Source: a virus (taxonomy: Duplodnaviria > Caudoviricetes). Taken from it: a stretch of 64,000 nt of DNA. Numbering within the stretch: the stretch's first letter is position 1; each line of letters begins with the position of its first letter. Shown here in pieces: positions 20,572 through 27,576 of this stretch. The notes beneath the pieces were generated by a model. That model had not been told where the DNA came from and made no database searches. It saw only the letters and a list, made by a program, of their open reading frames with translations. The position numbers were made by a program, and so were the translations under genes. The DNA lies in the IMG/VR virus record IMGVR_UViG_3300037067_007160, positions 66,356-130,355 of that record. The stretch is one strand, 5' to 3'.

Positions 20572-20886
20572 ATGGATAAAAGAACATATAAAGATAGAAG
20601 AGAATATCTCATAAAAGCAGTAAAGAGAAGAAGACGAGAATTAAGAAAACAAGCAGTGAATTATGCTGGAGGAAAGTGCATTTTATGCAATTATAATAAA
20701 TGCTTACATGCACTAGAATTTCATCATAAAGATCCAACACAGAAAGATTTTGGAATATCAAATGGTAATTGTAATAGTTGGAATAGAATGAGGAATGAAA
20801 TTGATAAATGTATTCTAGTCTGTGCAAATTGTCATAGAGAAATACATGAGAAATTGGCGTCTACCCATCAAGGTGACGGGTCCTGA
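20572..20886 (+). CDS. HNH endonuclease; stop codon inside tRNA-Asn
   Basis: CILC..LEFHHKDP..KCILVCANCHRE. Confidence 0.85.
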   Translation: MDKRTYKDRREYLIKAVKRRRRELRKQAVNYAGGKCILCNYNKCLHALEFHHKDPTQKDFGISNGNCNSWNRMRNEIDKCILVCANCHREIHEKLASTHQGDGS

Positions 20887-20932
20887 CTGTTAATCAGGCA
20901 CAAGGGTGGTTCGATCCCACCGACGCCAGCCA
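20855..20932 (+). tRNA. tRNA-Asn(GTT)
   Basis: TGGCGTC/GACGCCA, CCTGA-CTGTTAA-TCAGG. Confidence 0.85.
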
Positions 20933-20950
20933 AATTTAGGAGATATATAT

Positions 20951-21385
20951 ATGCATCTAACATACACAAAAGCACAATTAGCATCACTTAAAGTTCAAAT
21001 GTGGGCTAATCAATTAGGATATGTCGTTTCAATACCAACTGTTGAATCTAGATATGATATTCTTGTTGATGTTGATGGAAAAATATTTCGTTGTCAAGTT
21101 AAGTATGCTGGAAGAAAGCTTACAAGTGGGGCAACAGAGTTGGATCTTCGTAAAGAGACAAGAAATAATGGGAAAAAAAGATTATATACGAAAGATGAGA
21201 TAGATGTTATTCTTGTATATGTTCCTGAAGAAGACAAGGTTCTTTGGATTGATCATTCTAAATTTCATAATAGAAAAAGTCTAACAATTAGACATATTGA
21301 GAATACAAAATGTAAACAAGATTCAATATTTGTTAACGATTATATATGGGTCCAGAGCTCGGTTGGTAGAGCAGACGCCTCTTAA
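20951..21385 (+). CDS. PD-(D/E)XK homing-type endonuclease; stop codon inside tRNA-Lys(CTT)
   Basis: VSIP..RYDILVD..RCQVKY..Y...EID motif; AGGAG RBS before ATG 20951. Confidence 0.82.
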   Translation: MHLTYTKAQLASLKVQMWANQLGYVVSIPTVESRYDILVDVDGKIFRCQVKYAGRKLTSGATELDLRKETRNNGKKRLYTKDEIDVILVYVPEEDKVLWIDHSKFHNRKSLTIRHIENTKCKQDSIFVNDYIWVQSSVGRADAS

Positions 21386-21423
21386 GCGTAAGGTCGTGGG
21401 TTCGATTCCCACTGGTCCCACCA
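21348..21423 (+). tRNA. tRNA-Lys(CTT)
   Basis: ACGC-CTCTTAA-GCGT, TTCGATT loop, ACCA. Confidence 0.88.
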
Positions 21424-21430
21424 ATTTGTT

Positions 21431-21458
21431 GTGGGTCCAACTCCCACTCGACGCACCA
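21431..21458 (+). pseudogene. Orphan tRNA 3' remnant (T-arm, acceptor strand, ACCA)
   Basis: GTGGG-TCCAACT-CCCAC-TCGACGC-ACCA with no matching 5' half. Confidence 0.7.
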
Positions 21459-21463
21459 GATTT

Positions 21464-21539
21464 GGCCTTATAGTGAAATTGAATATCACATCTCCGTCCT
21501 AAGGAGAAGTTTTCGGTTTGAGTCCGAATAAGGCCGCCA
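21464..21539 (+). tRNA. tRNA-Arg(CCT)
   Basis: TCTCC-GTCCTAA-GGAGA. Confidence 0.88.
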
Positions 21540-21554
21540 GATATAGGAGTCTTC

Positions 21555-21923
21555 ATGAACAAGATACCACTAGTCTCAGTAACCAAAGATGACTTGGAAA
21601 TACAGACGTTTAGATGTGGAGGAAAAGGTGGCCAGCATCAGAATAAGACAGAAAGTGGAGTAAGAATTATTCATCCTCCATCTGGAGTAACAGTAGAGTC
21701 AAGAGAGGAACGGTCACAGGCACAGAACAAGGCTATTGCATTTAAGAGACTTACTACTAATAAGAAGTTTCTATTATGGTTAAAGATGGAATCGGCTAGG
21801 AAGATGGGCATCCTTGAAGATATTAATAGGGCAGTTGATAGGATGATGGATCCAAAGAATATAAAGACCGAAGTTAAAGAAGATGAGAAATGGGTAGAGA
21901 AGGAATTAGCGGGTGTGGTGTAA
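21555..21923 (+). CDS. Stand-alone RF-1-domain peptidyl-tRNA hydrolase (ArfB-like ribosome rescue factor)
   Basis: FRCGGKGGQHQNKTESGVRIIHPPSG..ERSQAQNK; lacks codon-recognition domains. Confidence 0.88.
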   Translation: MNKIPLVSVTKDDLEIQTFRCGGKGGQHQNKTESGVRIIHPPSGVTVESREERSQAQNKAIAFKRLTTNKKFLLWLKMESARKMGILEDINRAVDRMMDPKNIKTEVKEDEKWVEKELAGVV

Positions 21924-21982
21924 TGGTAGCATGAGACCCTTCCAAGGTCCAGGTACGAGTTCGAGTCTCGTCATCCGCTCCA
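21909..21982 (+). tRNA. tRNA-Gly(TCC)
   Basis: GCGGGTG/CATCCGC, CTTCCAA loop, TCCA. Confidence 0.9.
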
Positions 21983-21987
21983 GTTTT

Positions 21988-22059
21988 GACGGTGTAGCCT
22001 AATGGCTAGGCAACGGATTGCAAACCCGTTTTATGCTGGTTCGATTCCAGCTGCCGTCT
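21988..22059 (+). tRNA. tRNA-Cys(GCA) with substituted 3' acceptor strand, no encoded CCA
   Basis: TTGCAAA loop; GACGGTG/TGCCGTC; perfect 3' end CACCGTCTCCA displaced to 22485-22495. Confidence 0.85.
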
Positions 22060-22078
22060 CATTTTAGGGGTATTATAA

Positions 22079-22483
22079 TTGTTAAATAATAATAAGAAGA
22101 ATATACAACTCGAAATGAAATATGGAACAGCTTGTAATAAACTTAGAAAACTAATACTATTCACATTAGTTAAAGAAACAAAGAGAAATATATGTTATCA
22201 ATGTAAAAAAGAAATAACAAGTATCGATGATTTCACAATAGAACATAAGATTCCTTGGTTAGATAGTTTGGAACCAAAGAAATTGTTCTTTAGTATTGAT
22301 AATATTGGATTTTCTCACTATAAATGTAATATACGAGTTGCAAGAAAGATAAACAAGAAATATGCAACAAGAAATCAACGAGTAAGAGAATCTAGTAAAA
22401 GAATAAGAGATAGAATAAGGAAAACTAATCCAGAATTACTTAGACAGATTAGAAGAGAACAATATAGAAGGACAGGAAATTAA
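22079..22483 (+). CDS. HNH-like endonuclease, paralog of 17493 ORF
   Basis: GTACNKLRK..CYQC..TIEHKIPW..NIGFSHYKCN. Confidence 0.8.
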   Translation: MLNNNKKNIQLEMKYGTACNKLRKLILFTLVKETKRNICYQCKKEITSIDDFTIEHKIPWLDSLEPKKLFFSIDNIGFSHYKCNIRVARKINKKYATRNQRVRESSKRIRDRIRKTNPELLRQIRREQYRRTGN

Positions 22484-26129: not shown

Positions 26130-26163
26130 ATAGAAGACTCCCCTCAACTTGGGGGAGTTACTT

Positions 26164-26236
26164 TGCGGAGTCATTCAATGGTAGGATGTCGCTCTCTGAA
26201 AGCGATAACGTTGGTTCAACTCCAGCCTCCGCAGCC
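26164..26236 (+). tRNA. tRNA-Gln(CTG)
   Basis: TCGCT-CTCTGAA-AGCGA. Confidence 0.88.
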
Positions 26237-26327
26237 GGAAGATTGGCCGAGTGGTTTAAGGCACTCGTCTTGAAAACGAGAGGACCTGATGAAGGTTCCA
26301 CTGGTTCGAATCCAGTATCTTCCGCCA
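26237..26327 (+). tRNA. tRNA-Ser(TGA)
   Basis: CTCGT-CTTGAAA-ACGAG, long variable arm. Confidence 0.92.
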
Positions 26328-26332
26328 ATTTT

Positions 26333-26407
26333 GGCCTCATCGTCTAATGGCTAGGATTCCTCGGTCTCAACGAGGAGATACGGGTCCGAATCCCGTTGAG
26401 GCTGCCA
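26333..26407 (+). tRNA. tRNA-Glu(CTC)
   Basis: CCTCG-GTCTCAA-CGAGG. Confidence 0.87.
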
Positions 26408-26483
26408 TATGCTCTATTCGTCTAGTGGTCTAGGATCTCAGACCTTCAAATAAATAATAGTTTGAAAGTGATATAATAGTAAC

Positions 26484-26924
26484 ATGAAAAAATGCACGAA
26501 GTGTCTACAGGAAAAAGAAGATGTTGAATTTAGTATAAAACAGAAATTGCAACGTCATAGTTGGTGTAAAGAATGTCATAAAATATATCACAAAGAACAC
26601 TATAGGGCAAATATAGAAATATATAAGAAAAAGTTAATGGAACGAACAAGAAGATTGCGAAAGATCGCTAGGCATCTTATTATAGAATATCTTAAGACGC
26701 ATCCTTGCATTGATTGTGGAATAAATGATCCCACTGTTCTAGATTTTGATCATATTAGAGGAAAGAAAAATAAGGATTTATCAACAATGATTCATAATGG
26801 TTACAATACAGAAACGATAATAGCCGAAATTGCTAAGTGCGAAATTAGATGTGCAAATTGTCATAGACGAAAGACAATGCGTCAAAGTAAACACTGGAAA
26901 ATGACATCATCGTCTAATTGGTAG
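26484..26924 (+). CDS. Zn-finger + HNH endonuclease; stop codon inside tRNA-Glu(TTC)
   Basis: KKCTKC..WCKEC; CIDCG..LDFDH..KCEIRCANCHR. Confidence 0.87.
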   Translation: MKKCTKCLQEKEDVEFSIKQKLQRHSWCKECHKIYHKEHYRANIEIYKKKLMERTRRLRKIARHLIIEYLKTHPCIDCGINDPTVLDFDHIRGKKNKDLSTMIHNGYNTETIIAEIAKCEIRCANCHRRKTMRQSKHWKMTSSSNW

Positions 26925-26974
26925 GATAGTTCTCTTTCAAGGAACAGATACCAGTTCAAATCTGGTTGGTGTCG
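26903..26974 (+). tRNA. tRNA-Glu(TTC), cassette-borne
   Basis: GACATCA/TGGTGTC, GTTCT-CTTTCAA-GGAAC. Confidence 0.85.
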
Positions 26975-27032
26975 CTCCATTTTCTATAAAACAGAAGATG
27001 TTGGTTCGAATCCCGTACAGAGCACCAGATTT

Positions 27033-27052
27033 GCCCCAGTCGTTCAACGGAT
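27033..27052 (+). pseudogene. 5' remnant of a tRNA (Arg-like D-loop) cut off by an inverted HNH gene
   Basis: GCCCCAG-TC-GTTC-AACGGAT then HNH stop codon. Confidence 0.55.
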
Positions 27053-27054
27053 GG

Positions 27055-27426
27055 TTAATGAATAGTTGCATTACTACATAATCTATCATTAGTATGACGT
27101 ATACGGTGACAATTTGAACAAAGCAGGACGCACTTATCAAGTTCTTTTACTACATTATCCCAAGTATGAAGTCTCATTTTTACCCATTCTAATTCTTTTG
27201 TGTTGGCATCGAGGTGATGAAAATCGTAGACTTCTGGTTGATAGGTTTCTTTACAATCATAACATTTATCACCAAGATAAACAATTGCTTTTTTCTTACG
27301 AGATACCCATCGTGTCTGACAGTATCTATTAAAACAGTCTTTACAGTATGATTGAAGCTGTGTTTTTGTTTTCTTATAAAAACACGATTCATCTTTTTCA
27401 ACTTTACATTGTGGACATATTTTCAT
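27055..27426 (-). CDS. Zn-finger + HNH endonuclease (antisense to the array)
   Basis: MKICPQC..YCKDC; YDFHHLD..KCVLLCSNCHR; AAGGAG RBS; minus-strand GATATAAT at 27521-27528. Confidence 0.85.
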   Translation of the reverse strand: MKICPQCKVEKDESCFYKKTKTQLQSYCKDCFNRYCQTRWVSRKKKAIVYLGDKCYDCKETYQPEVYDFHHLDANTKELEWVKMRLHTWDNVVKELDKCVLLCSNCHRIRHTNDRLCSNATIH

Positions 27427-27438
27427 ATAATGCTCCTT

Positions 27439-27518
27439 GAGCCAGTATCTCCTCGGTCTTCTAAACCGATGAAAGAGTAATTGGACACATGTGGGTTCGA
27501 CTCCCATCTGGCTCGCCA
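27439..27518 (+). tRNA. Non-canonical tRNA-Arg(TCT) lacking a D-arm at the normal position
   Basis: GAGCCAG/CTGGCTC-GCCA, TCGGT-CTTCTAA-ACCGA, canonical T-arm. Confidence 0.7.
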
Positions 27519-27576
27519 ATATTATATCTTAGAAACATTTGTTCTAAACTATAAGACATTAGTCTGGAGGAATGCC

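Follow-up and report, generated by a model that had tools for sequence, protein, structure and literature searches.

We describe a set of small nuclease genes, each joined to a tRNA gene, in the tRNA array of an uncultured phage. The stretch analysed (the window, 64,000 nt) comprises bases 66356-130355 of the 130-kb IMG/VR record IMGVR_UViG_3300037067_007160 (CheckV completeness 52%), and its array, called with ARAGORN and Rfam, holds 33 tRNA genes, all on the plus strand, and one tmRNA (Rfam 88 bits) within 19400-28900. At three sites in this array, those of Leu-TAA, Ile-GAT and Glu-TTC, a resident tRNA gene is split into 5′ and 3′ stumps by a unit made up of a promoter, an HNH endonuclease gene and a complete tRNA, and the same logic is seen at two more, where a PD-(D/E)XK nuclease gene and tRNA-Lys(CTT) adjoin a 3′ stump of Lys-CTT and a minus-strand HNH gene and an atypical Arg(TCT) tRNA adjoin a 5′ stump of tRNA-Arg. 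The units have empty counterparts in relatives, are polymorphic within one sample, carry the anticodon of the gene that they interrupt and, in one case, end in a filler junction; introns, recombinase genes and terminal repeats are absent from them. Our preferred reading, which we regard as probable while leaving real room for doubt, is that free-standing homing-type nuclease genes, each fused to an isoacceptor of the gene that was broken, entered the tRNA genes of the phage array by homing. The units and the remains of their host genes are as follows (L100, L105 and L108 are relatives introduced below).

24118-24141, plus strand: 5′ stump of tRNA-Leu(TAA), acceptor strand and D arm (7/7 pairing with 24756-24762)
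24142-24728, plus strand: cassette 1, with a TTGACA-17-TATAAT promoter (24155-24183), HNH gene (24203-24655), cargo tRNA-Leu(TAA) (24641-24717) and an 11-nt tail
24729-24766, plus strand: 3′ stump of tRNA-Leu(TAA), from the 3′ strand of the anticodon stem to CCA (orphan T arm)
25492-25517, plus strand: 5′ stump of tRNA-Ile(GAT), positions 1-26 (7/7 pairing with 26066-26072)
25518-26031, plus strand: cassette 2, with an extended -10 promoter (25533-25540), HNH gene (25558-25965) and cargo tRNA-Ile(GAT) (25956-26029)
26032-26076, plus strand: 3′ stump of tRNA-Ile(GAT), from the anticodon loop to CCA (assigned by sequence and orphan T arm)
26411-26449, plus strand: 5′ stump of tRNA-Glu(TTC), positions 1-38, through the anticodon loop
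26450-27002, plus strand: cassette 3, with a promoter (26470-26477), HNH gene (26484-26924), cargo tRNA-Glu(TTC) (26903-26975) and about 26 nt of filler
27003-27027, plus strand: 3′ stump of tRNA-Glu(TTC), from the T loop to CCA (identical from 27003 on to the intact gene of L105 and L108)
20938-21427, plus strand: Lys cassette, with a ribosome-binding site, PD-(D/E)XK gene (20951-21385) and cargo tRNA-Lys(CTT) (21348-21423)
21428-21458, plus strand: 3′ stump of tRNA-Lys(CTT), T arm, acceptor strand and CCA (orphan T arm)
27033-27058, plus strand: 5′ stump of tRNA-Arg, acceptor strand and D arm (assigned by position and likeness to the 5′ part of the intact Arg-TCT at L100:3611-3685)
27055-27548, minus strand: inverted unit, with a promoter-like site (27521-27548), HNH gene (27055-27426) and, on the plus strand, an Arg(TCT)-like tRNA (27439-27518)

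Stumps were located by scanning for a T arm, acceptor strand and NCCA outside the called tRNAs, and their 5′ partners by acceptor complementarity together with a D arm. Five orphan T-arm/acceptor/NCCA pieces were found (21431, 24739, 26049, 27000 and 27491), with 5′ partners at 24118 and 25492 (7/7 acceptor pairs each) and at 26411 (6/7), where the mismatch is also present in the intact Glu gene of relatives. Each 5′ piece begins precisely at the expected start of the next tRNA of the array. Relatives have, at the corresponding positions, intact tRNA genes to which the pieces align, so the pieces are not chance resemblances, and the proposal of a first-pass annotation, made from the letters of the DNA alone, that three promoter-HNH-tRNA cassettes sit between the halves of resident tRNA genes is borne out. 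The cargo tRNAs of cassettes 1, 2 and 3 score 62.5, 54 and 59 bits with Rfam, respectively, and cargo Lys(CTT) was called by both ARAGORN and Rfam (59 bits). Within the 130-kb record, each of cassettes 1, 2 and 3 occurs once.

DNA searches of a phage collection, for near and for distant matches alike, returned nothing similar to the window, and only distant relatives were reached among IMG/VR loci when two HNH proteins, a phosphatase and the RF-1 protein served as entry points. Comparisons were made with L100, a 3.8-kb JGI contig reached by RF-1 protein search (88% identical RF-1) and sharing 75-95% identity with the window; L105, which is 71.7 kb long, belongs to an NCBI assembly, was reached through the exact protein of the HNH gene at 25558 and is 97-99.7% identical to the window outside the array; L106, an ENA contig; and L108, a JGI contig whose flanks of the Glu site match the window at 99.86% and 100% identity. 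Over 17000-29000, the window was also compared with Logan contigs from four runs (X1, X2 and X4 among them) that belong to three studies.

These relatives reveal empty sites. In L100, Leu-TAA, Ile-GAT, Glu-TTC and Arg-TCT are intact at the corresponding positions, Arg following Glu. The Leu 5′ stump aligns to the start of the intact gene L100:2455-2530, with which the 3′ stump shares 37 of its 38 nt, and cassette 1 is absent, 22 nt standing in its place. The Ile 5′ stump starts 5 nt past tRNA-Val, where L100 has an intact Ile-GAT; cassette 2 is absent from L100 and present in L105, L106 and L108, and the DNA downstream of the 3′ stump is 93% identical to L100. The Glu 5′ stump equals the first 39 nt of the intact L100:3530-3605 and differs from L105:10854-10929 at one base, the first, and in L105 and L108, both with an intact Glu(TTC), 12 nt stand in place of cassette 3. 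At the Lys site, L105 carries an intact but different Lys-CTT gene (L105:4753-4828, 70% identical to the cargo), while a contig of run X2 joins 20937 to 21428. The 3′ part of that intact gene has the same T arm and acceptor strand as the orphan at 21428-21458, and the PD-(D/E)XK gene with its tRNA-Lys(CTT) is therefore a replacement cassette too. L105 shares cassettes 1 and 2 and the inverted unit with the window, and the whole inverted unit is absent from L100. Presence and absence at the same locus are thus documented among L100, L105, L108 and the Logan contigs. Intact empty alleles, which the first-pass annotation had expected among related phages, were recovered at Leu, Glu, Lys, Arg and Cys (the last described below), and at Ile in the form of a positional homologue only. 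JGI metagenomes gave no match to a pattern representing the window's own Ile allele in intact form, and exact-pattern scans of IMG/VR for the Ile 3′ stump and the three cargo tRNAs had none either.

The Arg(TCT)-like sequence of the inverted unit, which includes the orphan piece at 27491, scores 34.5 bits with the Rfam tRNA model and was not called by ARAGORN. Its acceptor, anticodon and T arms are good; it has no normal D arm and a variable region of 21 nt. Relative to the minus-strand HNH gene it is antisense, placed between that gene's start and the promoter.

Reciprocal cases occur in L105, where a PD-(D/E)XK gene and tRNA-Ser(GCT) lie between two Ser(GCT) stumps and an HNH gene and tRNA-Leu(GAG) follow a 5′ stump of Leu(GAG); both genes are intact in the window. 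The window's Ser(GCT) gene lies at 20384-20471 and the cargo Ser(GCT) of L105 at L105:4415-4506. The anticodon of the cargo matches that of the resident in all seven cases (Lys-CTT, Leu-TAA, Ile-GAT, Glu-TTC, Arg-TCT, Ser-GCT and Leu-GAG), which span two nuclease folds, and cargo and resident are 52-72% identical. Same-anticodon cargo had initially been recognized for Ile-GAT and Glu-TTC; these assignments stand, their restriction to two sites does not, since the intact L100 gene identifies the resident at the Leu cassette as TAA as well. A stump scan of 99 loci from other phages (1.66 Mb), at relaxed settings that recovered two of the three window stump pairs, the Glu pair (6/7) falling under the cut-off, yielded one more nested HNH gene, L066:2688-3225, and no other cargo case. 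This gene, from an unrelated IMG/VR phage, encodes a 161-aa HNH protein of the same family and lies between tRNA 5′ and 3′ pieces with no replacement tRNA.

Population data place the filled and empty alleles side by side. The joint of 26449 to 27003 with 12 letters between them, which constitutes the intact Glu gene, was found in Logan contigs of the four runs. In run X1, probably the sample that yielded the record, read depth at the Glu site was 10.3 for the empty form and 7.8 for the filled form, with flanks at 15.6-17.3, and an HNH unit at 17408-17938 followed the same pattern (6.4 vs 11.2), so that filled and empty alleles coexist in one metagenome. With 14 nt of the resident gene gone from the filled Glu allele, deletion could not turn it into the empty one, and the change ran in the direction of insertion. 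As far as assembled sequence can tell, the cassettes are real insertions that are still segregating.

The junctions differ from case to case. The resident genes are broken after tRNA position ~24 (Leu), 26 (Ile) and 38 (Glu), and ~13, 5 and 14 of their nucleotides, respectively, are missing: the Leu gene lacks ~13 nt of the anticodon arm, the Ile gene the 5 nt that form the 5′ strand of the anticodon stem, and in the Glu gene 14 nt are replaced by filler. Inserts start 20-45 nt before the promoter -10 element and end 2-24 nt past the CCA of the cargo. The nested units have no terminal inverted repeats, no fixed target duplication and no flanking direct repeats. At the right end of cassette 3, the filler (26979-27003) consists of two pieces, in permuted order, from the 5′ region of the cassette's own HNH gene (26512-26545), a similarity whose score was matched by 3 of 2000 shuffles. 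Such templated filler is characteristic of microhomology break repair with template switching, and the cassette 3 filler points to such repair here. Two other readings of the sequence were discarded. Six differences at the right junction of cassette 3 were considered as co-conversion from a diverged allele, until the repeat search traced them to this filler, and an extra 5′ fragment at 23944, considered as part of cassette 1, is conserved in L100 within another segment.

Six ORFs in 20572-27560 are HNH endonucleases by PHROGs (E 1e-17 to 1e-31) and one is a PD-(D/E)XK nuclease by Pfam, both of them folds of homing endonucleases:

20572-20886, 22079/22115-22483, 24203-24655, 25558-25965 and 26484-26924, plus strand, and 27055-27426, minus strand: HNH genes (PHROGs)
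20951-21385, plus strand: PD-(D/E)XK gene (Pfam PF11645, E 3e-18)
20566-20852, plus strand: plain intergenic insertion containing the HNH gene 20572-20886 (PHROG 2255, E 1.5e-26), without stumps

All seven genes adjoin tRNAs, and with a G+C content of 0.26-0.37, against 0.41-0.43 for the backbone and ~0.5 for the tRNAs, their ORFs lie 8-15 points below the backbone, in agreement with the AT-rich, tRNA-adjoining set of six HNH genes and one PD-(D/E)XK gene first reported for this region. The association with tRNAs takes more than one form. Five units of the window lie inside tRNA genes, and the HNH gene at 20572 is alone in being intergenic; the HNH gene at 22115-22483 belongs to a different type of insertion, at tRNA-Cys. 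The 20572 ORF extends 32 nt into tRNA-Asn (20855-20932), and in its absence L105 passes directly from Lys-TTT to an identical Asn; an X2 contig joins 20560 to 20853. In all five units with a downstream plus-strand tRNA that the ORF overlaps, the nuclease stop codon lies 10-38 nt within that tRNA, and HNH 22115-22483 ends before Ser-CGA with no overlap. The HNH gene of cassette 1 belongs to PHROG 14736/10822 and is preceded by a promoter matching the consensus at 12/12 positions; those of cassette 2, cassette 3 (E 2e-31) and the inverted unit (E 4e-31) belong to PHROG 2255. Pairwise identity among the nucleases is only 27-43%, so they arrived separately and are not recent duplicates of one another. 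Against an expectation of 5.9, the window contains 15 occurrences of the motif GATATAAT, 14 on the plus strand, and the motif is found upstream of all three nested HNH genes and, on the minus strand, upstream of the inverted one.

Neither HNH 25558 nor HNH 26484, each used as a query in protein searches, gave a close relative beyond this phage lineage. HNH homologues ~50% identical to 26484-26924 are present at L112:2001-2526 and L115:2001-2511, on contigs with bacterial housekeeping genes, and end ~10 nt inside a tRNA (Arg-TCG and Trp-CCA, respectively). Given these overlaps in bacterial-looking contigs, fusion of the ORF to a tRNA is a family trait that reaches beyond phages. Gp102 of mycobacteriophage PegLeg likewise overlaps tRNA-Met. 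Neither in PegLeg nor in the bacterial-looking contigs with homologous HNH genes is the ORF-tRNA overlap accompanied by stumps.

The insertion at tRNA-Cys represents a second type, which involves the acceptor strand only:

22054-22484, plus strand: Cys-type cassette, with a recoded tRNA-Cys acceptor 3′ strand (22054-22062), a promoter-like site and HNH gene 22115-22483 (PHROG 23251, and sequence)

Here the HNH gene is inserted at the T-stem/acceptor boundary of tRNA-Cys. The recoded acceptor strand, which has two G-U pairs and no CCA, stands upstream of the HNH gene, and the original strand with its CCA has been displaced to 22485-22495, downstream of it. The empty site is seen in L100, in which Cys, its end undisplaced, is followed directly by Ser-CGA. 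The same build recurs at 17408-17938 and at L105:6166-6591, and units of this type are flanked by imperfect direct repeats of 9-16 nt. In the first of these, an HNH gene (17494-17940) of the same family as 22115-22483 is inserted into a tRNA-like element at its 3′ end, and an imperfect direct repeat of 16 nt accompanies it. The 17408-17938 unit is absent from L105 and from X2 and X4 contigs, and both forms are present in X1. Units of the Cys type, with an HNH gene of PHROG 23251, bring just a recoded acceptor 3′ strand.

From the break positions in the stumps and the 52-72% identity of cargo and resident, we infer that the nucleases are active and specific and that the cargo alleles resist them; the nucleases would also have driven the spread of the units. 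In the mechanism we propose, when a relative co-infects, the nuclease would cut that phage's sensitive allele of ‘its’ tRNA gene within or beside the anticodon arm, and the break would be healed by copying in the promoter, the nuclease gene and its differently sequenced tRNA. Poor flanking homology would lead to repair by microhomology and template switching, such that both resident stumps stay around the insert. The phage would be unharmed because the insert supplies the same anticodon, and the stumps and neighbouring DNA would provide homology for further homing into relatives with intact alleles.

The most serious alternative, which we consider unlikely but by no means negligible, holds that the cassettes are one-off scars of illegitimate recombination between diverged phages, the units having no mobility of their own and the cargo being the donor's allele rather than a selected complement. 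The filler and the small junction deletions do suggest illegitimate repair, the length of donor flank after the cargo varies from 2 to 24 nt, the searches turned up neither a donor nor a second context for any of the cassettes, and cassettes 1 and 2 are fixed in all close relatives sampled. Such scars would, however, have to account for seven independent anticodon-matched cases involving two folds in two close genomes, which is hard without targeting and selection against tRNA loss, and for a Glu cassette at intermediate frequency in a near-isogenic background.

Several observations also weigh against homing into tRNA genes as we propose it. The HNH gene at 20572, of the same family, sits harmlessly between genes, and the Arg unit is inverted and its tRNA atypical. 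The L100 Ile-GAT is a third, different sequence, such that the empty Ile site is positional only. IMG/VR pattern scans and HNH protein and locus searches produced no donor with a cassette in another context, self-similarity above shuffles was obtained at only one tested junction (the right end of cassette 3), and the coexisting alleles could reflect two strains rather than ongoing homing.

Less probable still is that recombination between conserved tRNA segments, without any nuclease, shuffles the array and leaves duplications and stumps, the nucleases being passengers in a tolerant region; we think this improbable. Breaks inside tRNA genes do occur without a nuclease, as in L101, which is 99.5% identical to the window and diverges in tRNA-Cys, and the Val and Ile alleles of L100 and the window differ though their flanks are 93-95% identical. 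Against such shuffling, a nuclease gene lies within every stump pair, the junctions fall in or beside the anticodon arm and not in the conserved T and D segments, and the ends of the inserts are not tRNA sequence.

A third possibility, that the broken tRNAs are functional split genes whose insert is removed or whose halves are joined as RNA, is very hard to sustain. The stumps of cassettes 1 and 2 have perfect acceptor and T stems. However, an Rfam cmscan of 19000-30000 passed only tRNA and tmRNA at threshold and gave no group I or group II intron even at E <= 1. Exact removal of the insert would not restore the host gene either, given that the Ile and Leu anticodon-arm pieces are absent and the 14 nt of Glu are filler, and the insert already holds a complete tRNA of the same anticodon. 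The units of 0.4-0.6 kb contain the nuclease ORF alone, with no ORF for a tyrosine or serine recombinase or for a transposase. The initial description of the elements as free of introns and integrases, and of the residents as beyond repair by splicing, is upheld on each count. Finally, assembly chimeras from repetitive tRNA arrays are scarcely credible: the data do come from metagenomic contigs, and cassette borders are where Logan unitigs break, but such breaks are expected from real polymorphism, and the same junctions appear in independent assemblies from IMG/VR, NCBI (L105), ENA (L106), JGI (L108) and the Logan runs. Entry of the nuclease-tRNA units by homing is the reading that we retain, and all predictions of the first-pass annotation that can be tested in silico are supported.

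Nuclease genes in phage tRNA clusters have precedents. SegB of phage T4, which drives the inheritance of that phage's tRNA region, cleaves tRNA genes in their T arm (PMC2330249), and it amplifies units of segB and tRNA-Tyr through microhomology (PMC13096335); F-TflI/II/IV of T5, as cited in PMC2330249, are HNH nucleases of the T5 tRNA region. Like the window units, these are nuclease genes within phage tRNA clusters with tRNA genes as targets. In contrast to the window, no nested replacement tRNA or stumps are reported for SegB, a GIY-YIG nuclease, or, as far as that citation extends, for the T5 enzymes; the nuclease families differ from ours, and the window implies breaks either within the anticodon arm or at the T-stem/acceptor boundary, not in the T arm. 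T4 SegE, SegF, SegG and MobE, by published summaries (PMC2330249, PMC2790892), share with the window units an intronless nuclease beside a resistant target allele, presence/absence polymorphism and the co-carriage of neighbouring DNA. They are intergenic and effect a clean allele swap, whereas the window units lie inside the target, keep both stumps after the presumed cleavage and hold the replacement allele nested. A nuclease travelling with a resistant target allele is the accepted model of intronless homing, and the novelty here is the nested architecture and not the principle. In the literature covered, which did not extend to work on HNH genes and tRNA diversity in cluster M mycobacteriophages, we found no report of a resistant allele nested in a broken sensitive allele, nor of its recurrence at tRNA genes. 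The first-pass annotation did not recognize the architecture as described; this agrees with our reading of the literature as to the nesting, while the principle behind it was already established.

Other mobile elements offer partial parallels. Integrase-borne islands and prophages insert into tRNA genes and restore their 3′ end. The window units are similar in that the element carries a copy of the displaced part of the tRNA gene, and the Cys-type units in bringing a new acceptor 3′ strand. Imperfect repeats flank the Cys-type units and none flank the nested ones. Unlike the islands, the window units have no integrase, measure 0.4-0.6 kb and recode the restored strand rather than reproduce it. 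Parker, Belisle and Belfort reportedly showed in 1999, in engineered crosses, that the T4 td intron can be acquired by illegitimate double-strand-break repair with limited exon homology. A nuclease-made break healed from a donor through microhomology at an ectopic site would be common to both systems, with the difference that td is a splicing intron studied in engineered crosses and the window holds natural products with filler and no splicing. In phage Aeh1, mobE is said to split nrdA without loss of function. ‘HEG-islands’ are cargo modules bracketed by nucleases (PMC10448857). As in these two systems, nuclease and cargo would move together and a nuclease inside a gene is tolerated; unlike in either, the cargo in the window is a replacement of the very gene destroyed. 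Group I introns with homing endonucleases in tRNA anticodon loops (PMC3984707) are likewise mobile elements near the anticodon that are harmless to the host. They achieve this by splicing, whereas the window units have no ribozyme and harmlessness would come from the second gene copy.

Several other features of the array were recorded. It includes a tmRNA at 19426-19862 and an ArfB-like RF-1 domain protein at 21555-21923, the latter replaced in L105 by an ORF with an EncFtn-like Pfam hit (L105:5012-5308). Excision of tRNAs would strip the stop codon from nuclease ORFs that end inside them, which may connect to these rescue factors. A long variable arm is a feature of bacterial Leu tRNAs, and the tRNAs with Leu anticodons here (TAG, CAA and TAA; 20016-20093, 24043-24117, 24641-24717 and L100:2455-2530) are 75-78 nt long and lack one. 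Among the 33 tRNAs called in the window (19870-28892), none has a CAT anticodon (Met, fMet or Ile2). Position 33 of the anticodon loop, near-universally T, is C in the resident Glu(TTC) (26411-26449, L100:3530-3605 and L105:10854-10929) and also in the cargo Ile(GAT) at 25956-26029, which could bear on escape from anticodon nucleases.

tRNA-Val(TAC) at 25413-25486 gives no BLAST alignment with L100:3038-3112 despite the 93-95% identity of the flanks, and the tRNA alleles turn over far more quickly than the surrounding DNA. A recombination break point within a tRNA gene is seen at L101:1228-1387, where a contig that matches window 20821-22048 at 99.5% identity departs from it in tRNA-Cys (from 22048 on) and goes on with other Gln and His tRNAs. 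L100:1719-2177 is a 161-aa ORF, its family unassigned, between tRNA-Tyr and tRNA-Gly(GCC); the window, which keeps its last few codons at 23835-23845, has apparently lost it by microhomology deletion.

In conclusion, we tentatively suggest, as a possibility on which we stop somewhat short of an even bet, that these units form a distinct class of selfish element, the ‘replacement homing cassette’, in which a nuclease gene and a resistant isoacceptor (or a recoded acceptor strand) enter in the middle of the target, the host is kept whole by substitution, and the stumps act as homology arms. The finding itself bears on two long-standing issues, namely how homing endonuclease genes gain new sites and how they spare the host when they land in a gene that it needs. 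The known ways of sparing the host are self-splicing introns and inteins, and intergenic placement. A third, bringing a replacement of the broken gene, is seen here in natural before-and-after pairs, among them near-isogenic ones from a single sample, in which the break points and one filler junction are a record of entry. The stumps also predict the cleavage sites of seven uncharacterised nucleases, and the finding explains why tRNA alleles in phage arrays diverge far beyond their flanks. It also offers a way in which phages could exchange tRNA bodies when tRNA-cleaving defences press on them. If the proposed class is real, replacement homing cassettes would rank among the main forces behind the turnover of alleles in such arrays, and they may provide tRNA variants able to evade the anticodon nucleases of the host.

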